Counted from the first letter of the stretch, positions 5,461 through 23,971 are shown. The stretch is 64,000 bases of DNA from Verrucomicrobiia bacterium (GCA_035515475.1 DATJBF010000070.1:3228-67227); one strand, 5' to 3'. Numbers and translations are program-made. Notes: generated from the letters alone by a model not told the origin.

Positions 5461-5590
5461 CCGGGCCCTGAGAGTGAATAGTTTGTAACACGCGTTGGCC
5501 TAGCCAGTTGTGTCAGCAGGAGAATTCTTTGTCGTGGCGTCTGTGCATGAATGCTGCTATAGTAGTGGCCTTCGAGTTGACCGGTAGCAG

Positions 5591-5779
5591 GTGCAGAGAA
5601 AGAACAGGCAGCCAGTGAAACTGTTAGGCAGAATAAGGACACGGTCGGGCGCATCGCTATTTGAGTGCGCCGTCATCCTGGTTTTGGTGAGCATTGTCGC
5701 CGTGCTGATTCTCCAAGGCATTGGGGGCAAGACGAACCACATGCTCGCGCCCGTCAACGACGGGTTTGGGCAGCAGTAG
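5591..5779 (+). CDS. Flp/Fap-like (type IVb/c) pilin
   Basis: Basic leader, then G|ASLFE (Glu at +5), a ~20-aa hydrophobic helix and a short tail; 62 aa. Confidence 0.65.
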   Translation: MQRKNRQPVKLLGRIRTRSGASLFECAVILVLVSIVAVLILQGIGGKTNHMLAPVNDGFGQQ

Positions 5780-5787
5780 TTGGTGTC

Positions 5788-6825
5788 TCACCGCCGGGTG
5801 GCGGGCTGCTGTTGCGTGAGGCAGTGGAACGAGCCAAACCCCCAAATCAGGCTCGTACTATCCATCCCCACAACTCGTCGGCCGCGGAAAAGTTCCTGGA
5901 TAATCCGAATGGCGACCGCGTCGTTTTTCGGGTGACGGTACGTCGGCACCAAGACGACGCCGTTGGCGATGTAGAAGTTCGCGTAACTTGCCGGTAACCT
6001 CCGTCCCTGATATTCGACCAAGCCCGGCATCGGCAATTCCCTGATCCGCAAGAGCTGTCCATCTTGGTCACGCATGGCGCGCAACCGTTTCAGGTTTTCC
6101 TGCAACGGCTGGAAATTGCTGTCCTGCGGATCGTCCTCAACGGCGGTGACGACCGTTGCAGGACCCACAAAGCGCGTGAGGTCGTCCACGTGTCCGTCGG
6201 TGTCGTCGCCGGCGATTCCCTGGCCGAGCCAGAGAACGTTCGTGACGCCGAGATAATCCGTCAGGTACTGTTCGAGTTGGCGTTGGTTCAGTCGTGGATT
6301 GCGGTTGGGGTTGAGCAGGCACGACTCGGTGGTGAGGAGTGTGCCTTCGCCGTTTACGTCGAGTGCCCCGCCTTCCATCACGATGCCCGGCTTGAACACC
6401 GGCAGCCCGAGTGATTCGGCAATACGTGCCGGCACCCGGTCGTCCTCGTCGTAGGGCGGGTACTTACCTCCCCAAGCGTTGTAGTCCCAGTCCACAACGG
6501 CCAGTTCGCGCTCCCGTTTCACGAAGGTCGGCCCGTGATCGCGGCACCATGGCTCGTAGGCGGGGATGCGATGGTAGAACACGTTGACGGCGTCGCCAAT
6601 TGTTTTCCGGGCGATGGCTTCCACCTCCTCATTGCGGACGTTGATGTTGACCCGCTCGTGCGGCGCGAGCGTGCGCACCAACTCACCGAGCGTCGGCAAC
6701 ACCTCTTCGTAGCGATTGGGAAAACTGATCCCGTCGGGTCGCGGCCAACTCAGCCACGTCGCCGCATGCGGGTGCCACTCCGCGGGCATGCGATAGCCGA
6801 GTTCGCGTGGAGTTGGGCCGGACAT
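5788..6825 (-). CDS. aguA: Agmatine deiminase
   Basis: 'MPAEW.PH..TW..WP', 'WCRDHGP', 'EGG', 'DTDGHVD', 'ASYANF', 'GSFHCLTQQQP'. Confidence 0.95.
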   Translation of the reverse strand: MSGPTPRELGYRMPAEWHPHAATWLSWPRPDGISFPNRYEEVLPTLGELVRTLAPHERVNINVRNEEVEAIARKTIGDAVNVFYHRIPAYEPWCRDHGPTFVKRERELAVVDWDYNAWGGKYPPYDEDDRVPARIAESLGLPVFKPGIVMEGGALDVNGEGTLLTTESCLLNPNRNPRLNQRQLEQYLTDYLGVTNVLWLGQGIAGDDTDGHVDDLTRFVGPATVVTAVEDDPQDSNFQPLQENLKRLRAMRDQDGQLLRIRELPMPGLVEYQGRRLPASYANFYIANGVVLVPTYRHPKNDAVAIRIIQELFRGRRVVGMDSTSLIWGFGSFHCLTQQQPATRR

Positions 6826-7700
6826 CAGTCGAGAAACCGTTCCGTGATCGGGGCGTAGGCGTCGATGCGGCGGTCGCGCAGGAACGGCCAGTGTTGGCGC
6901 GTTTCCTCAACCAGGCGGAGGTCGCATTGGCCGACGACCACTTCCTCTGCGTCGTGGCTGGCGCGCGCGATGATCTCGCCGAACGGACCGCAGAGGAACG
7001 AGCCGCCCCAAAACTCAACGGTTCCCTCGCGTCCGACCCGATTGGACACGGCCACGAACACGCCGTTGGCGATGGCATGCGCGCGCTGGATCGTGACCCA
7101 GGCGTCGAACTGTTTCTGTCCGAGGGCTTTCTTCTCGCCGGCGTGCCAGCCGATCGCCGTGGGATAGACGAGGATTTGGGCGCCTTTGAGCGCGGTGAGC
7201 CGGGCGGCCTCGGGGTACCACTGGTCCCAACAAATGAGCGCGCCGATTCGGGCGTGCTTGGTGGTGAACGCTTGGAAACCCAGGTCGCCGGGCGTGAAGT
7301 AGAATTTCTCGTAGTACAGGGGATCGTCGGGGATATGCATCTTGCGATACCGCCCGAGGAGCTTCCCGTTCGCGTCGATCACGACGGCGGTGTTGTGATA
7401 GACGCCGGCCGAGCGTTTCTCAAAGATCGAGCCGATGACGGTGACGCGGTGACGGCGGGCGGTGTTCATGAGTGCCGCCGTGGTTGGACCGGGGATCGGC
7501 TCCGCCAGCGCGAACTGTCGGTGGTCCTCCGACTGGCAGAAATACAGCGACCGGAACAACTCGGGCAAACAGACAACGTGCGCGCCGCGTTCGGCGGCGC
7601 GGGCGACGAGCGCCAATCCCTTCTTCAGGTTTTCCGATGGTTGCGGCGTGCAGCGCATCTGCACGAGGCCAACGGTGATGGTGGGACGCGTCGTCGCCAT
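6825..7700 (-). CDS. aguB: N-carbamoylputrescine amidohydrolase (nitrilase family)
   Basis: 'PELF', 'YRKMHIPDDP.YYEKFYF.PGD', 'ICWDQWYPE', 'FLRDRR'; coupled to aguA; real start MATTRP at 7700. Confidence 0.9.
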   Translation of the reverse strand: MATTRPTITVGLVQMRCTPQPSENLKKGLALVARAAERGAHVVCLPELFRSLYFCQSEDHRQFALAEPIPGPTTAALMNTARRHRVTVIGSIFEKRSAGVYHNTAVVIDANGKLLGRYRKMHIPDDPLYYEKFYFTPGDLGFQAFTTKHARIGALICWDQWYPEAARLTALKGAQILVYPTAIGWHAGEKKALGQKQFDAWVTIQRAHAIANGVFVAVSNRVGREGTVEFWGGSFLCGPFGEIIARASHDAEEVVVGQCDLRLVEETRQHWPFLRDRRIDAYAPITERFLD

Positions 7701-7726
7701 GGAAAAAATCCGGCGGAACCATGATG

Positions 7727-7752
7727 AATTTCTTGCATTGCTGCAAGAAATT
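7727..7752. promoter_or_regulatory. Perfect 11-bp inverted repeat (putative operator) between divergent aguB and pdaD
   Basis: AATTTCTTGCA-TTGC-TGCAAGAAATT in an AT-rich 87-bp intergenic gap. Confidence 0.55.
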
Positions 7753-7787
7753 TGTTTTTGTTCGGCAGGGACGGCGAGAGCCAGCAC

Positions 7788-8336
7788 ATGCATTTTGTTC
7801 CATCGAAGATTTTTCTGACCAAGGGTGTCGGGACGCACAAGCACGAACTGCGCAGTTTCGAGTTGGCGCTGCGCGACGCGGGGATTGAAAAGTGCAACTT
7901 GGTGACCGTATCGAGCATTCTGCCGCCGCGGTGCAAGATCATTTCCCGGAAGCAGGGTGAGCAGCTGCTGCAGCCCGGGCAGATCACGTTCGCGGTCATC
8001 GCCCGCATCGCAACCAACGAACCGCACCGTTTGATCGCGGCGTCGATCGGCGTGGCCCAGCCCGCGGAAGAAGACGCGTATGGGTACCTGAGTGAATTGC
8101 ACGCCTACGGCATGAACGACACCGCGGCCGGCAATTTTTCCGAGGACATGGCGGCGGCGATGCTGGCAACGACGCTGGGGGTGGATTTCAACGAGGACGC
8201 CAGTTGGGATGAGAAGGAGCAGGTATTCCGCATGAGCAGCAAGATCGTGCGCACCAGCAATTGCACGCAGACCGCCGTCGGCCACCCGCAGGGGTTGTAC
8301 ACGACGGTGCTCACGGCGGCGATTTGTCTGTTCTGA
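7788..8336 (+). CDS. pdaD: Pyruvoyl-dependent arginine decarboxylase
   Basis: '[11 protein letters not shown]', '[11 protein letters not shown]...NLV.VSSILPP' (self-cleavage site), 'GYLSE'. Confidence 0.92.
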
Positions 8337-8387: not shown

Positions 8388-8870
8388 GTGAAGAACGACG
8401 TGGTAGAGGTGCAAGTGAGGGGCGTGCTGCCGACGACGAACGGTTGCGCGGTGTTCGTCGGCAACGACGAGAAGACGTTTGTCATCTATGTGGACCACAG
8501 CGTCGGGGCTGCCATCACGATGTTTCTGCGCAACACGCCCAAGGAGCGACCGCTCACGCACGACCTGATCGGCCATATTTTCACGGGACTGGGCGTGAAG
8601 GTGGAGCGCATCGTGATCAACGACCTCAAGAACAGCACGTACTACGCGCGGCTCGTGCTGCGTTCCGAAAACGAACTCGGCAAGAAGATACTCGAGATCG
8701 ACTCGCGCCCCAGCGATTGTATTGCCCTGGCCGTGCAGCAAAAGAGTCCCATCTATGTCGCCACGAAAGTGTTTCATGCGGTCGACGACATGTCGGAGGT
8801 CCTCAAGCGCATGAAACAAGAGGGCGGCGACGAGTTCACCGGTCAGGAAGACGAAGGGCCGACCGAATAA
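8388..8870 (+). CDS. Bifunctional nuclease family protein (DUF151)
   Basis: 'RPLTHDL', 'IDSRPSDCIALA...PIYV'. Confidence 0.92.
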   Translation: MKNDVVEVQVRGVLPTTNGCAVFVGNDEKTFVIYVDHSVGAAITMFLRNTPKERPLTHDLIGHIFTGLGVKVERIVINDLKNSTYYARLVLRSENELGKKILEIDSRPSDCIALAVQQKSPIYVATKVFHAVDDMSEVLKRMKQEGGDEFTGQEDEGPTE

Positions 8871-8880
8871 GCGTGACGGT

Positions 8881-10653
8881 TTACGGCGGTTCTTGCCACC
8901 ACGGTCGCTCGACCTGGTAAACGTAGATTGAATACCCGATGACCACCACGGGCGTTGTGTCCGACAGGGGTTTGTAGAAGTCGCGCCAGCGTTCAGTAAA
9001 ATAGACCCCGCGCAGGTTGGTGGCGCTGACGGCCACCAGTCCGGGCAACTCCGGCGGGGCCACGAATTTCTCGTCAAAAAAGGGCGCGCCGGGCAGGTGA
9101 GTGCAGTGAATCTTGTAGTACGCGGGATCGGCAGTCCCAAAGTAACTCAGGTTGATGTGCTGCACGTGGTTCTCGTCCATCCAACCTTTCAAGCCTTTCA
9201 GGTCCTGGCCCCAGTCGAGGCTGGAATCGACGAGATACTTGTATCCGTTGCGCGGGCCGCCGACGAACCGGTTGAAGAAGGCGAGGTAGTGTGGGGCGAC
9301 CGATGCCAGTTCCCCAACGGCCAGAAGGCACAAGGCTCCCAACAACCCCTGGAGTGGACGTCGTTTCGTATACCAGAGCTTGGCCACAGCTTTCCCCGCC
9401 AGGAGTAACACGAATGGATAAATCGGCAGAATGTGACGCAGGCCGATGTTCAATTTGGCGGCCATCGCCGGCCCGAGGAATCCTGCAATCGACAGCAAAG
9501 CGTAGAGGTCGTCGCGAAAAAAACCGCCGCGCCGCTCGGCGCACAGGAACAGGCCCCCGAGGAAGAGCACGATGACCGACACCGGCGTTTTGATCAAAAA
9601 GGCCAGTGGAAAGAAATACCACCAACCCTGGACGCTGTATTGCCCCGCAAGAAATCCGCCACGGACTTGTGCCTTGGCCTGGGTGACGAAGAAACCCTGG
9701 AGATACGCGTTGGGCAACAAACGATGGTCGTCCGCCCAGCCCACGACGCGGGCGATCCCGGGCACACGGTCCTGCATGGACGGGTCGGCGGGGAAATCCA
9801 TTTTCCACGTGTTCGACGCCGACGGCAGGAAGCGGAAGCCATAACTTGCCCAGATGGCGAGCCACGCCGTAAGGCTGAGCGCGACGAAGATTGCCAGTCC
9901 CGCCAACGTCTTCCGCCCCATGCCGGCCAGTTCACCGCTGTGGCCGAAGCTCCCGCGCCATGGGGTTCGCTGGCAGACGCGCGCAACGAGCAACAGCAGC
10001 ACCACAGGACCGAGAAGAATTGCCGTGAATTTGCTGATCTGCGCCAGCGTGAAGAACCCGATCAGGCCGCAAAGATTGGCGGGGGTCAACTTCCGTGCGG
10101 TCCTCCAAAGAAAGTAGATCGTTCCAAATGCGAAACAGGTCACCCCGAAATCGGTTGTCACGAGGCTCGAATTGGCGAGAATGTTTGGTTCCATCGTGTA
10201 CAGAGCCAACACGATCAGCGCCGGCGCAAACCCGAGGAACTCTCGCGTCCAGCAGAACAGCAGGATGCCCAGCAACACGCCCAGCAGCACGATCATGAAC
10301 CGGGCGGGGTAGAGGAGTCGGTCGGCATCGTTCATGACGTACAGGAAACCATGGCAAAACTCGAACTGCACGGTGCCAATCCAGGCCAACGGGTCGACTT
10401 TGTCGATCACGCGGACTTCCATCTTGATGTCGTGCCTCGCCAGCAGTGGCAACGCCGCCCACATGCGTAGAAACGGCGGATGTTCCGGATCGGTTCGGTA
10501 GTCGTGGAATTTCAGCGCGGTATAGCCCGCGATCAGATGTTGCGGCTCATCCCAGGTCGCCGACTCCTGGCGGTAGCTGGTCACGGTCAGGGTAATGAAC
10601 ACGGCAGCGAAGACGGACAGCGCAAGTGCCGTCCGCACCCAGGGCTGATTCAT
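8881..10653 (-). CDS. GT-C fold (GT39/PMT-like) membrane glycosyltransferase, array copy 5 (most downstream)
   Basis: Polytopic; 'ESATWDEPQH', 'DPEHPP', 'TTDFG', 'LNIGLRH', 'DSSLDWGQ'; start set by alignment with paralogs. Confidence 0.8.
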   Translation of the reverse strand: MNQPWVRTALALSVFAAVFITLTVTSYRQESATWDEPQHLIAGYTALKFHDYRTDPEHPPFLRMWAALPLLARHDIKMEVRVIDKVDPLAWIGTVQFEFCHGFLYVMNDADRLLYPARFMIVLLGVLLGILLFCWTREFLGFAPALIVLALYTMEPNILANSSLVTTDFGVTCFAFGTIYFLWRTARKLTPANLCGLIGFFTLAQISKFTAILLGPVVLLLLVARVCQRTPWRGSFGHSGELAGMGRKTLAGLAIFVALSLTAWLAIWASYGFRFLPSASNTWKMDFPADPSMQDRVPGIARVVGWADDHRLLPNAYLQGFFVTQAKAQVRGGFLAGQYSVQGWWYFFPLAFLIKTPVSVIVLFLGGLFLCAERRGGFFRDDLYALLSIAGFLGPAMAAKLNIGLRHILPIYPFVLLLAGKAVAKLWYTKRRPLQGLLGALCLLAVGELASVAPHYLAFFNRFVGGPRNGYKYLVDSSLDWGQDLKGLKGWMDENHVQHINLSYFGTADPAYYKIHCTHLPGAPFFDEKFVAPPELPGLVAVSATNLRGVYFTERWRDFYKPLSDTTPVVVIGYSIYVYQVERPWWQEPP

Positions 10654-10705
10654 AGGCGCGGATTGTAGCCGCTGGGCGCGGGAGCGACTAGAAAAACCTC
10701 GCGGG
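10654..10705 (-). repeat. 52-bp conserved inter-gene spacer carrying TACAAT -10 box (1 of 4)
   Basis: Minus strand cccgcgaggtttttctagtcgctcccgcgcccagcggcTACAATccgcgcct-ATG. Confidence 0.8.
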
Positions 10706-12460
10706 CTACCACCACGGCTGCTCGACCCAATAAACATAGATGCAGTAGCCGAGGACGGCTACGGGTGTTTGGTCCCGCAACGGGGCGTACAGACTCCGTT
10801 CGACGTCGTTCAGGTACGCCCCGCGGAGATAAGTGGCGCTGATGGCGACGTAGCCGGGCAGCTGTGGCGGGGTGATTCGGCTGCGGTCGAAGAACGGCGC
10901 GCCCGGTAGCGGGGTATAATCGATCCCGTAGTACGTCGGGTCGGCTATCCCGAAGTAACTCAGGTTGATGCGGCGGACGTGGTGCTCCGTCATCCATCGT
11001 TTCAAGAGTTTCAGTCCCTGGCCCCAATCCAGGTTTGAGTCCACGAGGTATTCGGCGCCGTGGCGCGGGCCGCCGATGCTCACGTTGAAGAACGCGAGGC
11101 AGTACGGGTAGACCGTGGCGAATTCGGCCAATTGGCCCACGCACAAGACAGTCAGGATAAGGCGTCGCCAGCGGCGGCGCGAACCTGTTGCCAGCGGCGC
11201 GAGCAGCGCGGCAATTGTCCAACCCGCCAGCAGGAGCATGAACGGATAGATCATCAGAACGTGACGGAGCCCGATATTCAGATGGCCCGCCAGCGCGGTG
11301 GCCAGATAGACGCCGGGCGGCGCCAGAACGAACAGCGCATCGTGCCCCCGCGCCTTCCACTGAGCCACGCACAGCAAAAAACCGACGACAGCTGTCAACA
11401 ACAGGGACAGGGGCGTCTTGATCAGAATCGCGAGCGGAAAATAATACCACCAGCCGTCGTTGCTGAATTTGCCCATGAGGTATCCGGTCCGCCCCTGGGT
11501 TGTCGTGGCCATGGAAGCGAATCCCTGCGCGCAGGCGTTGGGCAGCAGGTGATGATCGTCAATCCATTGCATGACTCGCATCAGTTGTGGAAGATGGTTT
11601 TGCGCTTGAACGGTCATCACAAACCGTTCGGGCGTGCTTCCCGGAGTGGGCGCGTAACGGAACGCATAAACGCCCCAGAGTGCCGCGTATGACGTAAGCA
11701 GCAAGGCGCCCATGACCAGCACGGTCAACAAGCCCTTCGACGCCCGGGTGGTAAGGAGCTTCGGATGACCGAGCCGCAGTTGCCAGGGCGTGGCCTGGAG
11801 TGCCCGGATTAAGAGCAAGGCGAATAGGACAAGTCCGGTAAGTACGGCTGAGTATTTGCTGATTTGTGCCAGCACGAAGAACACGGCGAAGCCGGTCAGG
11901 TTGCCCGGGCTGAATTGACCGGCGAGTCGCCACGCGAAATAGGTGGCGCCGAACACGAGGCAGGTCGAGCCCAAATCCGTCGTGACCAGTCCCGAATGCG
12001 CCAGCAGATTCGGCTCGATGCAGTAGAATCCGAGAACGATTACGGCCGGCCAAAACCCGAACAACTCCCGGGCCCAGCAAAAGACCAAGATGCCGAGCAG
12101 CACCCCGAGGAGGGCGATCATGAAGCGAGCGCGAGACAGCAACAAATCCGCATCGTTGTCCTGAAACAGGAACTGATGGCAAAAGAGATACGGCTCGCCG
12201 TTCAGCCAGTACTGGCTGTTGGTTGCCACCTTGACGTTGGGGAGCGCCAGGAGTGGGAGCGCGGCCCACAGGCGAAGCAGCGGCGGATGTTCCGGGTCCA
12301 GCCGGTAGTCGTGCAGCTTGAGTGCGGTATAACCGGGCACGAGATGTTGGGGTTCGTCATAAGTCGCCGACTCCAGCCGGTAACATCCGATGGTCAGGGT
12401 CAGGTAGACCACGGCAAAGACGGCCAGCACGAGGGCAGTGCGAATCCAAGGTCGACTCAT
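10706..12460 (-). CDS. GT-C fold membrane glycosyltransferase, array copy 4
   Basis: 'ESATYDEPQH', 'DPEHPP', 'LNIGLRH', 'DSNLDWGQ', ends PWW. Confidence 0.8.
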   Translation of the reverse strand: MSRPWIRTALVLAVFAVVYLTLTIGCYRLESATYDEPQHLVPGYTALKLHDYRLDPEHPPLLRLWAALPLLALPNVKVATNSQYWLNGEPYLFCHQFLFQDNDADLLLSRARFMIALLGVLLGILVFCWARELFGFWPAVIVLGFYCIEPNLLAHSGLVTTDLGSTCLVFGATYFAWRLAGQFSPGNLTGFAVFFVLAQISKYSAVLTGLVLFALLLIRALQATPWQLRLGHPKLLTTRASKGLLTVLVMGALLLTSYAALWGVYAFRYAPTPGSTPERFVMTVQAQNHLPQLMRVMQWIDDHHLLPNACAQGFASMATTTQGRTGYLMGKFSNDGWWYYFPLAILIKTPLSLLLTAVVGFLLCVAQWKARGHDALFVLAPPGVYLATALAGHLNIGLRHVLMIYPFMLLLAGWTIAALLAPLATGSRRRWRRLILTVLCVGQLAEFATVYPYCLAFFNVSIGGPRHGAEYLVDSNLDWGQGLKLLKRWMTEHHVRRINLSYFGIADPTYYGIDYTPLPGAPFFDRSRITPPQLPGYVAISATYLRGAYLNDVERSLYAPLRDQTPVAVLGYCIYVYWVEQPWW

Positions 12461-12512
12461 CGCCGTGGATTGTAGCGGCTGGGCACGGAAGCGACGAGAG
12501 AAACGTTGCGAG
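12461..12512 (-). repeat. 52-bp conserved spacer with TACAAT (2 of 4)
   Basis: Same length and layout as the other spacers; TACAAT 8 nt before ATG. Confidence 0.8.
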
Positions 12513-14270
12513 CTACCACCACGGCCGCTCGACCCGGTAGATGTAGAGACAATAGCCGAGCACGGCGACGGGTTGACGTTGCCGCAACGGAGCGTACACA
12601 TCCTTGCCGAAGTCGCTGATGTACAGGCCGCGGAGATTGGTGGCGCTGACGGCGACGTAGCCGGGGAGTTCGGGCCAGGAGACCCGGGGGCGATCAAAGA
12701 ATGGGGCGCCGGGCAGCGGGGTATCGTCGATGCCGTAATACGCCGGGTCAGCCGTACCGAAGTAACTCAAGTTGATGTGACGGACGTGATTTTCCGTCAT
12801 CCACCCCTTGAGCAACTTCAGACCCTGGCCCCAATCCAGATTTGAATCGACGAGGTATTCCGCGCCGTATCGTGGACCGCCCACGCTCAGGTTAAAAAAT
12901 GCGAGGCAATACGGATAGATCGCGACGAATTCCGCCAACTGGGCAAGACACAAAATTGCCAGGACAACGCTTCGCCAACGTCTCCGCGTGTCGGACGCAG
13001 GCGGCGGCAGGAGGGCGCTGATGGTCCACCCAGCCACGAGAAGGACAAATGGATAGACCGTCAGGATGTGACGCAGTCCGATGTTCAAATGACCCTCGAT
13101 GGCCGCGCCGAGGTAAACGACGGGTGGCCCCGAGACGAAGAACGCATCGCATCCGCTCGTCTGCTGTCGCGCGACACACAGAATCAAGCCGATGGCGGCC
13201 ATCGCCAGCAACGCGACCGGAGTCTTGATCAGGAACGCCAGCGGAAAGTAATACCACCAACCTCGGCTGCTGAGTTCGCCCAGGAGATACGCCAGCCGCC
13301 GTTGCGCCGTCACCGCCATGGAGGCGAATCCTTGGGCACACGCGTTGGGCAAAAGATGGTGTTCGTCAATCCATTGCATGAAATGAACGAATTGCGGCAT
13401 CCGGCGCTGGGCTACGTCGGTCATCGCAAACCGAGCTTGCTCGATTCCCGCCGTCGTCGGCGCGTAGCGAAAGGCGTAAACGCCCCACAACGCTGCGTAC
13501 GAAACGGTCAGCAACCCGCCGATGGTGACCGCCGCCAGCAGCGCCTTCGACACGCGCCCCGTGATCACTTTCGGATGACCGAGATTGCAGAGCCACGGCA
13601 CGGAATTCAGCGCCCGGAACAACAGGAGTGCGAACAAGACGGGGTACAGCAGCACCGCCGAGTACTTGCTGATTTGCGCCAGCACAAAGAACACGACCAG
13701 CCCAGCCAAGTTCCCGATGGTGATGCGGCGGGCGCTGCGCCAGGCGAAGTAGACCGCGCCGAACATGAAGCAGGTCGCACCCAGATCGGTCGTCACCAAG
13801 CCGGAATGGGCCACCAGATTCGGTTCCGTGCAGTACAGTCCCAGGACGATCGTGGCCGGCCAAAATCCGAACAACTCTCGCGCCCAACTGAAGAGCAGAA
13901 CGCCGAGGAGCACGCCCAACAACGCGATCATGAATCGGGCGCGGAAGAGCAAACGATCCGCGTCGTTGTCCTGGTAAAGGAATTGATGACAGAAACTGTG
14001 CTGATCGCCGGACCACCAGTACGGGCTGTCGGTCGCCAGCTTGATGTCGCGGGTTGCCAGCAGCGGCAGAGCCGCCCACATGCGGACTAGGGGTGGATGT
14101 TCGGGGCCGAAACGGTAGTCGTGCAGTTTCCACGCGATGTAGCCTTCCGTGAGATGCTGCGGCTCATCATAAGTCGCGGACTCCAGGCGGTAACAGCCGA
14201 CGACCAACGCAAGGAAGACCGCGGCAAAAACGGTCAGCACGAGTGCCGTCCGGATCCAGGGCCGATTCAT
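12513..14270 (-). CDS. GT-C fold membrane glycosyltransferase, array copy 3
   Basis: 'ESATYDEPQH', 'GPEHPP', 'LNIGLRH', 'DSNLDWGQ', ends PWW. Confidence 0.8.
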   Translation of the reverse strand: MNRPWIRTALVLTVFAAVFLALVVGCYRLESATYDEPQHLTEGYIAWKLHDYRFGPEHPPLVRMWAALPLLATRDIKLATDSPYWWSGDQHSFCHQFLYQDNDADRLLFRARFMIALLGVLLGVLLFSWARELFGFWPATIVLGLYCTEPNLVAHSGLVTTDLGATCFMFGAVYFAWRSARRITIGNLAGLVVFFVLAQISKYSAVLLYPVLFALLLFRALNSVPWLCNLGHPKVITGRVSKALLAAVTIGGLLTVSYAALWGVYAFRYAPTTAGIEQARFAMTDVAQRRMPQFVHFMQWIDEHHLLPNACAQGFASMAVTAQRRLAYLLGELSSRGWWYYFPLAFLIKTPVALLAMAAIGLILCVARQQTSGCDAFFVSGPPVVYLGAAIEGHLNIGLRHILTVYPFVLLVAGWTISALLPPPASDTRRRWRSVVLAILCLAQLAEFVAIYPYCLAFFNLSVGGPRYGAEYLVDSNLDWGQGLKLLKGWMTENHVRHINLSYFGTADPAYYGIDDTPLPGAPFFDRPRVSWPELPGYVAVSATNLRGLYISDFGKDVYAPLRQRQPVAVLGYCLYIYRVERPWW

Positions 14271-14322
14271 CGCGGCGGATTGTAACGGCTGGGCGCAGGA
14301 GCGACCACAAAAACCTCGTCGG
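14271..14322 (-). repeat. 52-bp conserved spacer with TACAAT (3 of 4)
   Basis: ccgacgaggtttttgtggtcgctcctgcgcccagccgtTACAATccgccgcg-ATG. Confidence 0.8.
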
Positions 14323-16056
14323 CTACCACCATGGCTTTTCGACCCAGTAGACGTAGATGCTGTACCCGAGGACAACAACGGGCGTCCGCGCTTGCAGCGG
14401 TGCGTACCAACTGCTGCCGCCGGTGTAGGAGCACCGGAGATTGGTGGCGCTGACGGCGACGTAGCCGGGCAATCGCGGCGCGGCAATTCGCTCCTGATCG
14501 AAGAATGGCGCCCCGGGGAGGGGAGTATCTTCGATCCCGTAATACGCCGGGTCGGCGTGACCGAAGTAACTCAGATTGATGTGGCGCACGTGGTTCTGCA
14601 TCATCCACTGTTTCAAGAGTTTCAGGTCTTGTCCCCAATCCAGGTTCGAGTCCACGAGGTAATCGGCGCCATGCCGCGGGCCGCCAACGGCGATGTTGAA
14701 AAAGGCGAGGCAGTGCGGGTAGATCGCGACGAATTCCGCCAGTTGGCCGGCGCACAGGACGATCAGGGCGAAGCGTCGCCAAGGGAACCACGATCGGGTT
14801 GCGGTCGGCGCGAGAAGCGCGGTGATTGTCCACCCGGCCCACAAAAGGATGAACGGGTAGATCACCAGAATGTGGCGGAGCCCGATATTCACGTGACTCA
14901 CCACGGCCGTGCCAAAGTAGAAGACCGGCGGCCCGACCATGAATAGCGCATCGGGATGAACCTTGCCCCAGCGGAAAATGCACCATGTCAGGCCGCCAAG
15001 CGACATCACCAACAGGGCTAACGGCGTCTTGATTAGGAACGCCAAGGGGAAGTAATACCACCAGCCTTGAGGGCCGACCTTTCCGCAGAGGTAGGCGGGG
15101 TGCTGTCTGGCGAGCACGGAGGCGAAGCCGTGGATGCTGGCGTTGGGCAACAAATGGTGCTGTTGGATCCATTGGACGAAGCGCATCAGATGCGGTCGAT
15201 GCTCCGCCCCGGCGGTTATGGCAAAGACTCCCGCCTCCGACGGTGCATAGCGGAAATCGTAACCGGCCCAGATGGCACCGTAGGAAAGCGCCAGCAAACC
15301 GCCAACTATTGCCACGACGAGCACCACTTTCGGCCGCCACCCGGTGAGCGGTTTCGGCCGGCCGCTACGCCACGGCCAAGGCGCCGCACTCAGTGCGCGA
15401 ACCAACAGCAAGGCCAACAACACCGGCCCCAAGAGTAGCGCCGAATACTTGCTGACCTGCGCCAGTGCGAAGAACACGGCGAGCCCGATCAAGTTGCCGG
15501 GGCTCAGTTCGCGAGCGGTCCTCCAAGCAAAGTAGACCGCGCCGAAGATAAAGCAGGTCGCGCCCAGATCGGTGGTCACCAGCCCGGAATGGGCCACCAG
15601 ATTTGGTTCCACGCAGTACAGTCCCAGGACGATCGTGGCCGGCCAAAATCCAGACAACTCCCGCGCCCAACTGAAGAGCAAAACGCCGAGGAGCACTCCG
15701 AGCAGCGCAATCATGAATCGCGCCCGAAAGAGCAAGCGGTCCGCGTCGTTGTCCTGGTAGAGGAATTGATGGGCAAACGGATATTCGTCTCCCGCCAGCC
15801 AGCGCGGACTGTTCGTGTTGAACTTGATGTTGGAGGAAGCCAGGACCAATGGCAGCGCGGCCCACATTCGGAGGAAGGGCGGATGTTCGGCACCCATGCG
15901 GTAATCGCCCAGTTTCAGGGCGGCATAGCCCGCCACAAGATGCTCCGGTTCGTCCATGGTGGCCGACTCCAATCGGTAACAGCCGACAACCAACGCCAGG
16001 AATACCGCGGCAAACACGACCAACACGAGTGCGGGGCGAATCCACGGACGATTCAT
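14323..16056 (-). CDS. GT-C fold membrane glycosyltransferase, array copy 2
   Basis: 'ESATMDEPEH', 'GAEHPP', 'VNIGLRH', 'DSNLDWGQ', ends PWW. Confidence 0.8.
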   Translation of the reverse strand: MNRPWIRPALVLVVFAAVFLALVVGCYRLESATMDEPEHLVAGYAALKLGDYRMGAEHPPFLRMWAALPLVLASSNIKFNTNSPRWLAGDEYPFAHQFLYQDNDADRLLFRARFMIALLGVLLGVLLFSWARELSGFWPATIVLGLYCVEPNLVAHSGLVTTDLGATCFIFGAVYFAWRTARELSPGNLIGLAVFFALAQVSKYSALLLGPVLLALLLVRALSAAPWPWRSGRPKPLTGWRPKVVLVVAIVGGLLALSYGAIWAGYDFRYAPSEAGVFAITAGAEHRPHLMRFVQWIQQHHLLPNASIHGFASVLARQHPAYLCGKVGPQGWWYYFPLAFLIKTPLALLVMSLGGLTWCIFRWGKVHPDALFMVGPPVFYFGTAVVSHVNIGLRHILVIYPFILLWAGWTITALLAPTATRSWFPWRRFALIVLCAGQLAEFVAIYPHCLAFFNIAVGGPRHGADYLVDSNLDWGQDLKLLKQWMMQNHVRHINLSYFGHADPAYYGIEDTPLPGAPFFDQERIAAPRLPGYVAVSATNLRCSYTGGSSWYAPLQARTPVVVLGYSIYVYWVEKPWW

Positions 16057-16108
16057 CGCAACGGATTCTAGCGGCTCGCCGCGGCGGCGACCACAAAAAC
16101 CTCGCCGG
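16057..16108 (-). repeat. 52-bp conserved spacer with TAGAAT (4 of 4)
   Basis: ccggcgaggtttttgtggtcgccgccgcggcgagccgcTAGAATccgttgcg-ATG. Confidence 0.8.
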
Positions 16109-17857
16109 CTACCACCACGGCCGGTCGATCCAGTAGACGTAGATGCTATAGCCGAGGACGGCGACCGGTGTTCGCTCCCGCAGCGGCGCGTACAATTTCC
16201 TTTCGGAATCCGTCAGGTAGGCGCCACGGAGATTGGTGGCGCTGATGGCCACGTAACCGGGTAAGCGGATTGCACTGATCGGTTCGGCCTGTAAGTATGA
16301 CTGGCCGGGCAATAGCGTGCAGTTGATTCCGTAGTAGGCCGGGTCGGCCGTGCCGAAGTAACTCAGATTGATGTGATGGATCTGATGCTTCTTCATCCAT
16401 TGGCCCAAGAGCTTCAGACCCTGCCCCCAATCCAGATTTGAGTCCACCAGGTACTCCGAACCATGGCGCGCCCCGCCAACACTTGCGTTGAAGAATGACA
16501 GACAAAACGGGTAGATCATGGCGAACTCGACAACCTGAGCCAAACACAGTGCCGCCAGCACCAGCCTCCGCCAAGCGCGGCGAACTTGCGCTGTTCCTTC
16601 CGACAATAATTCCGCGATGGTCCAGCCGGCCAACAGGAGGATGAACGGGTAAACCGTCAAGACGTGGCGCAGGCCGATGTTCAACTGGCCGGCCATTGCC
16701 GCGCCGAGGTAGAGGGCGGGGGGCACCACGACAAACAGCGTGTCGCGGTTCGTCGTCTTCCACCGCACAACGCACAGGACCAAGCCGGTGAGCGCCAGTA
16801 ACAACTCGGCAATCGGAGTCTTGATCAGGATGGCAATCGGGAAGTAATACCACCACCCTTCGATGGTCGTCTGCCCGAGCAGGTAGGCTTGTCGGTGCCA
16901 CATCCACGCCATCGACAACGCGAATCCTTGGACGCAAGCATTGGGCAACAGACGGTGTTTGTCGATCCATCGCGTGACCTCCGCCAGGCGTGGCCACCGA
17001 TAGGCCTTGGCTTCCATGACGAAGATTCCACTCGCTCGCGGCGAGGGCGTGTATCGAAAACCGTAGGCCGCCCAGACCAGAACGTAGGCGATCACCAGCA
17101 ACCCCCCCAGCGTGACGATTACCGCCAATACTTTCGGCCTGCGTGCCGTAAGGAATCTCGAACGGCCGATGCTCCAAGGCCACGGCTCGTCACGGAGCGC
17201 CCGAATCAAGAGCAAGACCGACAACAGGGGCACCAGCGAGACCGCGGGATACTTGGTGATGGGGGCGAGCGTAAAGAACGTGCCGAATCCGACCAGGTTC
17301 CCAACGCTGAATTGTCTCGCCAATCGCCACGCAAAATAGATGGCGCCGAACATGAAACAGGTTGCGCCCAGGTCGTTCGTCACCAGACCCGAAAACGCCA
17401 CCAGATTCGGCTCGGTGCAATACAACCCGAGGACAATCGCCGCAGGCCAGAACCCGAACAAGTCCCGCGCCCAACAAAAGACCAGGATTCCCAACAGCGT
17501 TCCCAGCAGCGCGATCATGAACCGCGCCCGATACAGCAAACGGTCGGCATCGTTGTCCCGATACAGGAAATTGTGGCCGACCCCCCACATGTCACCCAGC
17601 CGCCAGGACTCGCTGGTGGTGTCCAGATGGACGTTGTCAATCGTCAACAGCGGCAGCGCTGCCCACAGCCACACGAGCGGCGGATGTTCGGGATCGATCC
17701 GATAATCGTGCTGCGTCCAGACGGCATACCCGTCGACCAGATGATGCGGTTCGTCAACCGTAGCGGATTCCCGTGTGTAACTTCCGACGACCAGCGTGAG
17801 GAAAACGACAGCGAAAAAGGACAACACGAGGGTCGTGCGAATCGACGGTCGGTTCAT
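16109..17857 (-). CDS. GT-C fold membrane glycosyltransferase, array copy 1 (most upstream)
   Basis: 'ESATVDEPHH', 'DPEHPP', 'LNIGLRH', 'DSNLDWGQ', ends PWW. Confidence 0.8.
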   Translation of the reverse strand: MNRPSIRTTLVLSFFAVVFLTLVVGSYTRESATVDEPHHLVDGYAVWTQHDYRIDPEHPPLVWLWAALPLLTIDNVHLDTTSESWRLGDMWGVGHNFLYRDNDADRLLYRARFMIALLGTLLGILVFCWARDLFGFWPAAIVLGLYCTEPNLVAFSGLVTNDLGATCFMFGAIYFAWRLARQFSVGNLVGFGTFFTLAPITKYPAVSLVPLLSVLLLIRALRDEPWPWSIGRSRFLTARRPKVLAVIVTLGGLLVIAYVLVWAAYGFRYTPSPRASGIFVMEAKAYRWPRLAEVTRWIDKHRLLPNACVQGFALSMAWMWHRQAYLLGQTTIEGWWYYFPIAILIKTPIAELLLALTGLVLCVVRWKTTNRDTLFVVVPPALYLGAAMAGQLNIGLRHVLTVYPFILLLAGWTIAELLSEGTAQVRRAWRRLVLAALCLAQVVEFAMIYPFCLSFFNASVGGARHGSEYLVDSNLDWGQGLKLLGQWMKKHQIHHINLSYFGTADPAYYGINCTLLPGQSYLQAEPISAIRLPGYVAISATNLRGAYLTDSERKLYAPLRERTPVAVLGYSIYVYWIDRPWW

Positions 17858-17968
17858 CGAAATCGAATTGTAGCGACGGCGAATGACTGCGGCGAGCGAA
17901 ACTTTACGCACCGGGGGAATTGTTTTCCGAGTCTTTGGCCGGCTCGGGCTTCGCTGGTTGCGCCTGGC

Positions 17969-19831
17969 TTACAGGCCGAGATTGGTGCCGAGACCGGGTT
18001 TCGCGTCCTGGTCGATGATGATCTCCCGGACCGTTTTACCGGCGGGAATCATCGGCAGCACGTGCTCGGTGTACGGCACGATGACGTCGAGAACGTAGGG
18101 TTCTTTCGACGCCAGCAGGCGCTCCAGCGCGGGCCGCAACTCGGTCTTGCGAACGGCGCGTTCGGCGGGAACGTTGAAGCCCTTGGCGATGGCCACGTAG
18201 TCGGGGTAAACCTTGTGCGGGTTCTGCGGGTCGCCCAGATAGGTGTGGCCGCGGTTCGACTGATAGAACCGGTCTTCCCACTGCACCACCATCCCCAAGT
18301 GCTGGTTGTTGATGACGATGGCCTTGGCGGCAATGCGCTCGATGTGCGCCGTGGCCAGTTCCTGGATGTTCATCAGGAACGAGCCGTCGCCGTCGATGTC
18401 GATCACTTGCCGGTCGGGGAAGGCGACCTTCGCACCCAGTGCCGCGGGATATCCGTAACCCATCGCGCCGAGCCCGGCCGACGTGAGGAAGGTGCGCGGA
18501 TGCTTGAATTTGTAGTACTGGCCGGCCCACATTTGGTGCTGACCGACGCCGGTGGTCACGATCGCTTCGCCCTTGGTAAGTTCGTCGAGCAACTCGATCA
18601 CGTATTGCGGCATGATGATCTCGTCGGTCTTGCCGTGCAGAAACTCGCGAACGTACTGTGATTTCAGCACCTCTTCGGTGACGCGATAGCCGAAGGGATA
18701 TTGCGCTTTCCATTCGGCGATCTGCTTGTGCCACGGCCCGAACTTCTTGCCCTTGACGACCTTGTTGAGTTGCTGCAAGGCGTACTTGATGTCGCTGACG
18801 ACCGGCAGGTGCACGACTTTGTTCTTGTTGATCTCGCTGGGATCAACGTCGATGTGGACGATCGTGCCGTGCTTGGCAAATTCGCTGACCTTGCCCGTCA
18901 CGCGGTCGTCGAACCGGACCCCGAGCGCCAGGAGCAAATCGGACTGGTCGACCGCGTAATTGGCGGCGACGCTGCCGTGCATGCCGAGCCAGCGCAACGA
19001 CAACGGGTGTTCCGCGGGAATTCCCCCGATACCCATGATGGTCGTCGCGACCGGTATATTCGTCTTCTCGGCGAACTCGACGAGTTCCGCTCCCGCGTTG
19101 GCCGAGATGATGCCGCCGCCGCAGTAGATGACCGGCCGCTCGCTCTTCTCGATCAAGCCCGCGATCTCGTTGACCGCGATGTCACTGATGCGTTTGTCGG
19201 GATTATAACCGCGCAGGATGACCTTGTCCGGGAAAACCGGTTTGCAGTTGCTCTGCTGAACGTCCTTGGGAATGTCGATCCAGACCGGCCCGGGTCGTCC
19301 CGTGTGGGCGATGTGGAACGCCTCTTTGAAGACGCGCGGGATGTCCTCGACGTTCATGATGAGGTAGCTGTGCTTGACGATTGGCAACGCCACGCCGAAA
19401 ACGTCGGTCTCCTGAAATGCGCCCTTGCCGATCATGGGACGCGGGACCTGGCCCGTGATTAACACGATCGGCACGGAATCCATGAACGCGTCGGCGACAC
19501 CGGTGACGAGGTTCGTTGCGCCCGGTCCGCTGGTGGCAATGGCGACGCCCGTCTTCCCGCTGGCCCGCGCATAGCCGCCGGCGGCGAACGCGCCACCCTG
19601 TTCGTGCCGGGGCAGAATCGTGCGAATGCTCTTCGAGCGGGTCAACGACTGATGCAATTCCATGCTGGCGCCGCCGGGATAGGCGAACACCGCTTCCACG
19701 CCCTCGCGCTCCAGACATTTGACAACGATGTCCGCCCCGCGCATGAGGCCGGACTGTTCCGCGCCGAGTTCGACAATCGGCGCTTGGGTCTTCGCGCGGC
19801 TTTTGGCCGTGGTATTCGATGGTTTGCTCAT
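17969..19831 (-). CDS. ilvB: Acetolactate synthase large (catalytic) subunit
   Basis: 'FAYPGGA', 'RHEQG', 'TSGPGATN', 'FQETD', 'GVGQHQMW', ThDP motif '[12 protein letters not shown]'. Confidence 0.96.
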
Positions 19832-22297: not shown

Positions 22298-23971
22298 CTA
22301 GAACCGGAAGACGTAGTACCGTTCATTGCGTACCGGTCCGAATGCGAACGGGAGCGGACCCCACAGATCCGCGTAGAAACCCGCTGCCGACTCCGGGCGC
22401 ATCGTTGACAGCCACCGACAAACATGCAAATCGACCCACCCGAAGGGCTTCAGATTCTCCAAGGGCAACGCGTTCACGTCGGTGTTGTTCTCGGGCAGTA
22501 CGACAAATGCGCCGGCGGGGATGGTTAAATTGAACAGATCGATCGGCTTGCATCCATAGGATTCCATGTAGTACTGGAATCCCCAGTGTCCCGCGAACCA
22601 CACGGGGCCCTGACCGCCGAATTTCTTGAAAATGGCCCTCGCGGCGGTGCGGGCACTATTTGCGAGCCGGTAATCGGAGTGAGCGGCTGACAGGGCGAGC
22701 ACGGCTGCGGGAATAAGCGCGCCCAGTGCCGTGTATAATCGTCTGGCTCCCGATTGAGAAGACGGGCGGCGACAGGCCACTCGTCGGGCCAACAAGATCG
22801 CCAGCGCGGGCATCATGGGGAGCAGCGCGCGCCCGGTTATCGCCCAATTGAAGTACGTGGCGAACGCAAACGTGCCGATGATCCACAGTGCCAACAGCGC
22901 CGACTCGGCATCTCTGGTTCTTCCCCATTCCGTGACAACAAGGCCAAACAGGCTGGCGCCTCCCATGACGAACAAGCCATACTGCAACGGGATCAACCAG
23001 TGCGCTGGACCGGCGGACGGCAGCGCATGGGTTCCGATTCTGGCGGAGAAATACGCGAGCAGGGCCACCGCCGTCGCGCCCCCAGCCAGGCCGAGCCACG
23101 TTCTGCGAGACCAGAGGAAAGGCGCCAGGAACAACACCGGCGCGCAACAACCTCCCGCGAACGCCAGGCCAATCAACGTCCTCGTCCACACCGACGCGCC
23201 GCCGCTTTGACGAACCCGGGGCGCAAATGCGATCGCGTACAGCAGGACGCCTTTCCCGTACGCCGCGCGCGTGACGCAGTCGTACACGATCGCCGCCGCG
23301 ACGGGGATCAATAGGTAGGCGGCCCACCAGCCGAGCCGTCGCTTCTTGATGGCGGAATACGCCAGCAACAAGCCGGGAAGAACGATGGCGAAATACTTCG
23401 TCAGCAATGCGGCGGCCATCAGGAGACCGGACACCAGAAGCGACCCGTGAGAGTCTCGCTGCATCCCGTCAATCCAGAAGACGATTGCCCAAACCAGGAA
23501 CGCCGTCATCGTTGTGTCGCACATCATCGTGGTGCTGGACACTAGGAAGGCCGGCGTGACCAACACCGTCAGACCGGCGAACATCGGGTTCGAGCCAAGC
23601 TGACGGGCCAGGTAATAGGTGCCCAAGATGGCCGCGATTGCCGGGAGAAGGAGTCCGATGTGCGCCGCCCGTTCGCCCCAGCCGAACCACCGGCCGATCT
23701 GGGCCAGGTAATACGATGCCAACGGCGGATTCTGATCGACCGCGGCCATGGGCATTTGGGTGATATTCCAATTGACGCTGAACCCGTAGGGATCCAGGGG
23801 ATGGGTTTGAATGCGCCGCGCAACCCAGAGGAACAAGGGATCATCGATGTGAACGGCTTTGTCGGAAAACGGCACGAGGCAGGCGACCACCGCAATGATG
23901 AGCAGCCAGAACGGATCGGCTACGATTCTTCGCAGCGGCTTCCAGCACGTCGGTTTCACCGGTGTGGACAT
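22298..23971 (-). CDS. GT-C fold (GT39/ArnT-like) membrane glycosyltransferase, unrelated to the array
   Basis: Polytopic; first-loop 'IDDP', 'NPPL..Y', 'A.LTKY'. Confidence 0.75.
   Translation of the reverse strand: MSTPVKPTCWKPLRRIVADPFWLLIIAVVACLVPFSDKAVHIDDPLFLWVARRIQTHPLDPYGFSVNWNITQMPMAAVDQNPPLASYYLAQIGRWFGWGERAAHIGLLLPAIAAILGTYYLARQLGSNPMFAGLTVLVTPAFLVSSTTMMCDTTMTAFLVWAIVFWIDGMQRDSHGSLLVSGLLMAAALLTKYFAIVLPGLLLAYSAIKKRRLGWWAAYLLIPVAAAIVYDCVTRAAYGKGVLLYAIAFAPRVRQSGGASVWTRTLIGLAFAGGCCAPVLFLAPFLWSRRTWLGLAGGATAVALLAYFSARIGTHALPSAGPAHWLIPLQYGLFVMGGASLFGLVVTEWGRTRDAESALLALWIIGTFAFATYFNWAITGRALLPMMPALAILLARRVACRRPSSQSGARRLYTALGALIPAAVLALSAAHSDYRLANSARTAARAIFKKFGGQGPVWFAGHWGFQYYMESYGCKPIDLFNLTIPAGAFVVLPENNTDVNALPLENLKPFGWVDLHVCRWLSTMRPESAAGFYADLWGPLPFAFGPVRNERYYVFRF

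Follow-up and report, generated by a model that had tools for sequence, protein, structure and literature searches.

A fixed-site tandem array of five paralogues from an uncharacterised family of GT-C glycosyltransferases in a Verrucomicrobiia bacterium

Adjacent paralogues of the GT-C glycosyltransferases are known from mycobacteria, as embC-embA-embB, and from Rhizobium, as rgtA/rgtB/rgtC, and in both cases the neighbouring enzymes use one lipid-linked donor and act at different acceptor positions. The division of labour between GT-C paralogues is thus an established concept, and what the locus described here adds is a new family and a tractable system rather than a new principle. We focus on five tandem genes in a 64,000-nucleotide stretch of DNA from a wetland Verrucomicrobiia bacterium (GCA_035515475.1, DATJBF010000070.1:3228-67227), referred to below as the window. 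The array is genuine, and in it an uncharacterised GT-C family has expanded by birth and death. We consider it probable that the five genes are functional, non-redundant paralogues of a bacterial GT-C family belonging to the Pfam PMT_2 clan.

The array consists of five minus-strand open reading frames (ORFs) that lie head to tail between positions 8881 and 17857, each with an ATG start and zero internal stops; gene starts were set at the conserved MN(R/Q)PW codons and the coordinates include the stop codons. The genes are G1 (8881..10653, 590 amino acids), G2 (10706..12460, 584 amino acids), G3 (12513..14270, 585 amino acids), G4 (14323..16056, 577 amino acids, the shortest copy) and G5 (16109..17857, 582 amino acids). 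In the alignment all five proteins share the motifs ESATxDEPxH, EHPP, NIGLRH, DSxLDWGQ and a terminal PWW, while the residue preceding the Asp-Glu pair is Trp in G1 (SATWDEP), Tyr in G2 and G3 (SATYDEP), Met in G4 (SATMDEP) and Val in G5 (SATVDEP). An earlier note on this DNA had described five intact genes with common motifs and short variable segments, and the reading frames, translations and alignment agree with it on each count: the segment that it quoted lies at about residues 322-335 of G3, and the residue before the Asp-Glu pair varies as it had reported.

Pairwise, the copies share 52-70% protein and 58-72% DNA identity, and by the NG86 method the synonymous divergence (dS) between them is 1.0-2.0, with ratios of nonsynonymous to synonymous divergence (dN/dS) of 0.17-0.31. 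All four gene junctions are covered with zero mismatches by unitig-level contigs of three wetland metagenome runs, one of which may be the window's own source sample. The identity range, the dS values and the junction contigs together rule out an assembly artefact or a set of near-identical copies, one of the findings that the earlier note had named as fatal to its interpretation.

The identity of the encoded enzymes is indicated by profile, structure and active-site evidence. Each of the five copies passes the gathering threshold of 26.1 bits for Pfam PMT_2 (PF13231) over residues ~110-230, with 39.3 bits for G1, 29.4 for G2, 35.3 for G3, 40.6 for G4 and 37.1 for G5. No other Pfam model is reported at E <= 0.01 for any of the five, and NCBIfam gives nothing above threshold, its only match being Agl23 for G4 at a sub-threshold 19.9 bits. 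The AF2 model of the G3 protein, built on a 60-sequence alignment, has a pLDDT of 93.3 and a pTM of 0.94, and all 26 Foldseek matches to the PDB at E <= 1e-3 are GT-C enzymes. The best of them is Pmt4 (9i5k_A; E = 2e-6, TM 0.51/0.59), and further matches include ArnT, STT3, ALG9, AglB, DPY19 and PglB. Sequence-level PDB matches to aldehyde dehydrogenase and haemoglobin (E >= 0.17) were discarded as spurious. In public annotation, members of this family carry the name 'glycosyltransferase family 39 protein'.

The family alignment joins the window copies with sequences from loci of at least 8 phyla, 60 in all, and in G3 numbering it contains 19 invariant columns: D35, E36, P150, D162, K202, G331, K349, P453, F459, G465 and G469, followed by the C-terminal D475, S476, D479, W480, G481, Q482, L487 and S542. 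All 19 residues are kept in all five window copies. A topology of 11 transmembrane (TM) helices, with the N-terminus inside and the C-terminus outside, fits both the helices of the model and the distribution of Lys and Arg, and it places every invariant residue on the periplasmic side. In model and alignment, D35/E36 directly precede the first helix (36-49) of the first periplasmic loop (EL1); a second Asp, D162, lies in EL2, R400 lies in EL5 ahead of TM10, and a beta-hairpin (327-334) is found at the C-terminal end of EL4. Equivalent features are known in the PMT of Mycobacterium tuberculosis, yeast Pmt1 (D77/E78), ArnT (D55/E56) and the TMTCs (PMC12331936, PMC7801869). Both the fold of the GT-C superfamily and its acidic DE motif upstream of the first EL1 helix are therefore present. 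On the model, each enzyme would span the inner membrane with about 11 TM helices, its N-terminus in the cytoplasm and its active site facing the periplasm; the predicted active site comprises Asp35-Glu36 (EL1), Asp162 (EL2), Lys202 (EL3), the GWWYYFP/IKTP block that closes EL4, and Arg400 of NIGLRH (EL5).

The last ~130 residues are predicted to fold into a small alpha/beta periplasmic domain which carries the invariant DSNLDWGQ. This domain has no Pfam match, and when modelled alone (pLDDT 83.7) it has no Foldseek match in the PDB (best E = 3.1), so that its predicted fold yields no functional lead. As a profile it is useful for tracing the family: among 1.84 billion clusters at 50% identity it matches 11,109 representatives at E <= 1e-3 and 8,435 at E <= 1e-10, mostly at the C-terminus of proteins of 550-620 amino acids. 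The family occurs in Verrucomicrobiota, Acidobacteriota, Planctomycetota, Thermodesulfobacteriota/Myxococcota (the former Deltaproteobacteria), Chloroflexota, the Candidate Phyla Radiation and other phyla, and in distant phyla there is mostly one copy per locus. Literature searches returned no paper on it. It is a large unnamed GT-C family without a characterised member, a Pfam model for its C-terminal domain or a solved structure.

The array occupies a fixed site in a housekeeping neighbourhood. Upstream it is flanked by ilvB, encoding the large subunit of biosynthetic acetolactate synthase (17969..19831, minus strand; TIGR00118, 711 bits against a cut-off of 538), and downstream by a BFN-domain gene that converges on G1 (8388..8870, plus strand; PF02577, 100 bits). 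Both genes are conserved neighbours of the array in related contigs, where PvlArgDC, CN_hydrolase and PAD_porph genes follow beyond the BFN gene; matching ORFs lie in the window at 5788-8336. About 29 related Verrucomicrobiia metagenome loci carry both flanking markers, a count that includes some duplicate contigs and a few low-identity loci of ambiguous assignment.

A maximum-likelihood tree divides the copies at these loci into three clades according to their place: clade A adjoins the BFN gene in every array, clade B stands in the middle and clade C is proximal to ilvB. The site holds A alone in three loci (L122-L124), B-A in 12 and C-B-A in seven, one of these with a truncated B; four copies in the order C-C-C-A are found in L001 and L002, and C-C-C-C-A in the window only, the largest array found. 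In 26 of the 29 syntenic loci the terminal A-type copy has at least one companion, and A is always last. In the window this anchor is G1, which clusters with the terminal copies of all related arrays (support 100/99), and the other four genes belong to clade C. G5 has a one-to-one orthologue in L001/L002 (73% identity, support 100/100). For G2, G3 and G4 the tree gives a group without internal resolution, to which L002 and L085 contribute one copy each, and G4 has the longest branch (0.35). The approximately unbiased test does not reject a clade of G2, G3 and G4 (p = 0.455), which fits a lineage-specific duplication, and it rejects a clade of G2 to G5 (p = 2.6e-6). The array has grown by tandem duplication and loss at the ilvB-BFN site, with the relatives ordered from A to B-A and then to C-B-A. 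The window's lineage no longer has B, and its C type now numbers four copies.

Two related loci show further changes in the array. In L001 the third of the four copies (11646-13558) is split into two overlapping ORFs (hidden Markov model positions 1-341 and 343-584) and is intact in the near-identical L002; the split marks a recent pseudogene, or else it is a sequencing error. In L087 an inserted PEP_mutase-family gene (5535-6359) separates ilvB from the first GT-C copy.

The divergence of the copies shows how long they have been maintained. Among G2, G3 and G4, dS is about 1.0-1.2 and similar to dS against the orthologues, and these duplications are therefore roughly as old as the split between the genomes. 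Across paralogue and orthologue pairs dN/dS is 0.14-0.31, and all five copies are maintained under purifying selection. The copies are old, selected and truly tandem, with no recent amplification. A GENECONV-like permutation test for gene conversion is negative in nine of the ten pairs; the sole conversion-like tract in the array is one of ~40 nucleotides (nt) common to the adjacent G3 and G4 (permutation p < 0.0005). The array thus evolves by birth and death and not in concert. The G3-G4 tract itself comprises 21 consecutive shared polymorphic sites at ~13830-13868 of the window (in G3) and the matching part of G4, and encodes GFWPATIVLGLYC in TM3.

Differences between the clades fall at two places in the protein. 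The residue before the Asp-Glu pair is Trp in all nine clade-A sequences compared and in nearly all terminal copies of the syntenic loci, whereas clades B and C have Val, Ile, Met, Tyr, Ala or Ser. Segment 312-335 of EL4, which includes the hairpin, is conserved across genomes within A and within B and is variable within C. In the PMT of M. tuberculosis, the acceptor groove is built from EL1 and the hairpin equivalent to this one (PMC12331936). The segments, two in number, that the earlier note had singled out would by analogy sit where acceptor specificity is set. From the retention of the copies under purifying selection and from the clade differences at the pre-DE residue and the EL4 hairpin region, we infer that the copies most likely differ in task, whether by acceptor site, by linkage or by donor.

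Two other functional readings deserve consideration, and the arrangement of the genes bears on the first of them. The clade-A protein could pair with a B or C partner in a hetero-oligomer, with the extra C copies as alternative partners that retune a single machine. Such pairing has precedents in Pmt1 with Pmt2 and in EmbA with EmbB. The best structural match of the G3 model is a Pmt4 homodimer, the accompaniment of A in 26 of 29 loci and the fixed A-last order also speak for it, and in relatives the B and A genes share 4 nt, an overlap suggestive of translational coupling. PMTs are reported to act as obligate dimers (PMC7759382, PMC12705809). Yet A stands alone in three syntenic loci, the predominance of single copies in distant phyla means that the family can work without a paralogue, and every catalytic residue is kept in all copies. 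We regard a hetero-oligomer as unlikely.

For five enzymes that act separately, as we prefer to read the array, the question of the sugar donor arises, and here the distant members of the family are informative. A GT2 gene lies within 6 kb of the family gene in 26 of 88 distant loci and is directly adjacent in seven, from at least five phyla (L015, L019, L030, L054, L067, L074 and L084). The best similarities of these GT2 proteins, all sub-threshold, are to the polyprenyl-phosphate sugar synthases PgfS, ArnC, AglJ, dolichyl-phosphate hexose transferase and PpgS. These GT2 neighbours give indirect support to a polyprenyl-monophosphate sugar as the putative donor of the family, as in the multi-component systems (PMC11127046). 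By analogy with PMT, ArnT and Gtr-type enzymes, a GT2 whose gene lies at another place in the genome would make the donor on the cytoplasmic side, the donor would be flipped to the periplasm, and the enzyme would there move the sugar onto an acceptor of the envelope, which could be lipopolysaccharide, another glycan or a protein. The other recurrent neighbours in the distant loci are S-adenosylmethionine (SAM) methyltransferases (11), DegT aminotransferases (9), TPR proteins (19), YfhO (8) and other PMT_2 proteins (12). A divergent pair of the family gene and a class-I SAM methyltransferase gene of the DVU_1556-like type occurs in Opitutae (L049:6274-7101, L058:9133-9873, L066:1512-2255 and L077:9129-9914), and in that lineage the sugar or the acceptor may be methylated.

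The neighbours in other phyla also bear on the second functional reading, an assembly line in which the copies would act successively on one growing periplasmic polymer, each taking sugar from the same lipid-linked donor and adding a residue or a branch. Mycobacterial Emb, Aft and Mpt enzymes of the GT-C type build arabinan and mannan stepwise in this manner. The gene order of the array is fixed and colinear across genomes, and other phyla cluster the family with YfhO, PMT_2+TPR, other PMT_2, GT2, DegT and methyltransferase genes. Against this stands the variation from one to five copies among close relatives, which is not expected if each step of the pathway is essential, and Pfam scans of the window detect no priming enzyme or polymer-export genes nearby. 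Successive action on one polymer seems to us as improbable as the hetero-oligomer.

Besides the proteins, the spacers between the genes are conserved. Each of the four measures exactly 52 nt. On the minus strand, the G2-G1 spacer (10654..10705) contains GGTTTTT...GCTACAAT, followed by 9 nt and the ATG, and the same motif is found in the G3-G2 (12461..12512) and G4-G3 (14271..14322) spacers. The G5-G4 spacer (16057..16108), upstream of G4, has TAGAAT in place of TACAAT, and the 111-nt region between ilvB and G5 (17858..17968) ends in GCTACAAT, 10 nt and the ATG. Eighteen upstream regions, drawn from eight arrays and including the one that separates ilvB from the first gene, conserve the arrangement GGTTTTTGTGG...GCTACAAT, then ~9 nt and ATG. 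Identity among the window spacers is 0.76, against 0.51 at third codon positions. The pattern TACAAT-N7-11-ATG occurs four times in the window, solely before G1, G2, G3 and G5, where 0.6 occurrences are expected by chance. No Shine-Dalgarno-like sequence is found in the upstream regions of the array genes. The run of five T was considered as the tail of an intrinsic terminator and rejected, the folds of the four junctions having z-scores of -0.14 to +0.95.

As judged from the sequence, these features suggest as the simplest reading a private -10-like element that would give nearly leaderless transcripts. Such promoter-like elements of the C copies' own (GGTTTTTGTGG...TACAAT, 9 nt, ATG), with the nearly leaderless mRNAs that they imply, are the basis for regarding the array as a modular glycosylation cassette, in which a constant A core would be combined with C copies as separately switchable partners or enzymes. 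We hold this to be less probable still than either of the two preceding readings. If it were true, the cassette would permit combinatorial variation of surface glycans, for example against phages or grazers, and in evolution the gain and loss of C cassettes would correspond to such switching.

Neutral redundancy, in which the copies would represent dosage amplification, decaying duplicates or an artefact without functional differentiation, is largely refuted and highly improbable: although the most variable segments are lower-confidence loops of the model and cytoplasmic loops, and one copy is frameshifted in the related assembly L001, every pair combines dS of at least 1 with its low dN/dS, the five copies are intact and keep all 19 invariant residues, G1 and G5 orthologues are retained in other genomes, three metagenome runs confirm the junctions and conversion is limited to one short tract.

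Several results nevertheless weigh against the interpretation of the array as five non-redundant enzymes. No copy reaches the specific PMT, ArnT or STT3 models of Pfam and NCBIfam, and PDB searches with profiles of 5 and 60 sequences detect no solved structure at the sequence level. None of the RNA runs contains this stretch of DNA, and the link of the two clade-specific segments with acceptor specificity comes by analogy. Neither the 64-kb window, whose other ORFs were scanned with Pfam, nor the flanking DNA of the syntenic arrays contains a GT2 or flippase gene, so that the linked polyprenyl-phosphate sugar synthase and flippase of a three-component locus are absent from both. In Rhizobium the donor synthase gene rgtE is likewise distant from rgtA/rgtB/rgtC.

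The pattern of variation along the protein is a further point on this side. Mean identity is 0.575 in periplasmic loops, 0.595 in TM helices and 0.34 in cytoplasmic loops, which are the most variable, and periplasmic EL4 (273-290, 317-326) and EL1 (78-92) contain the four 10-residue windows of highest variability. Much of the variation may reflect relaxed constraint, since the cytoplasmic loops exceed the periplasmic ones in variability, and dN/dS reaches 0.5 in no 30-codon sliding window, a test that is weak at dS of about 1. The adaptive diversification of loops that the earlier note had proposed is therefore a part of its interpretation that these results do not support, as the periplasmic loops are on average no more variable than the TM helices. 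A separate acceptor or regiospecificity for each copy, which it had also proposed, would be the best explanation of the array. Its other points are borne out: its GT-C enzymes with a DE loop are recovered in the PMT_2 matches, the AF2 model with its Foldseek matches and the invariant Asp-Glu of the first periplasmic loop, its expanding array corresponds to one to five copies at one syntenic site with the largest number in the window, and, as it had remarked, no donor-synthesis gene is adjacent.

The window contains two more GT-C genes outside the array. A sixth, of the PMT_2 type (22298-23971, minus strand, 557 amino acids, 50.3 bits), has a MobA-like gene on one side and tgt on the other; it has no match to the profile of the array family, is absent at the same position in L001 and L003, and looks like a lineage-specific insertion. 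In the seventh (54563-56599, plus strand) an N-terminal PMT_2 half is fused to many TPR repeats in a TMTC-like architecture, and the gene is flanked by those of two secreted EEP-BACON(-PKD) proteins (52393-54447 and 56776-59409).

The locus constitutes a natural experiment, in which one fixed site holds one to five copies of the defined types A, B and C. Through this copy-number series, glycomics or single-copy expression could link A, B and C each to a particular modification. Any difference between the copies in acceptor or linkage would show how abundant bacteria of soils and wetlands vary the glycans of their envelope.

How, then, does the array relate to the GT-C systems already described? 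With the PMTs (CAZy GT39; 6p25, 9i5k; PMC12331936) it shares the fold, the DE before the EL1 helix, the Asp of EL2, the Arg of EL5 and the EL4 hairpin. It differs in that its copies have no Pfam matches to PF02366, PMT_4TMC or MIR and no sequence matches to PMTs in the PDB, and its DSNLDWGQ C-terminal domain is unique to the array family. ArnT, the undecaprenyl-phosphate-L-Ara4N:lipid A transferase (CAZy GT83; 5ezm, 5f15), has the same GT-C fold and holds Foldseek ranks 2 and 4; it is of similar size (~550-590 amino acids), has an equivalent acidic pair in D55/E56 (PMC7801869) and a periplasmic C-terminal domain, and the host of the array has the lipid A genes LpxD and LpxA. However, the TM-scores to ArnT are 0.31-0.45 only, at 12% sequence identity, no copy matches the NCBIfam model of ArnT, and the ArnB/ArnC/ArnA/ArnD/ArnE/F operon is not in the window. 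Similarity to STT3/PglB/AglB (GT66) is confined to the level of the fold; the copies lack a PF02516 match and have DSNLDWGQ instead of WWDYG.

With the three-component systems (GtrA/GtrB/Gtr-type; Citrobacter GT136, PMC11127046) the array family may share the logic of a GT2 donor enzyme, a flippase and an extracytoplasmic GT-C, and distant members of the family often stand beside a small GT2 gene. Where these systems have a single GT-C gene, the array has five in succession, with no linked GT2 or flippase in the window or in close relatives. The paralogues embCAB and rgtABC, with which we began, belong to other GT-C families, the array copies being without Arabinose_trans or ArnT-type matches, and their copy number is fixed, whereas at the ilvB-BFN site it ranges from one to five.

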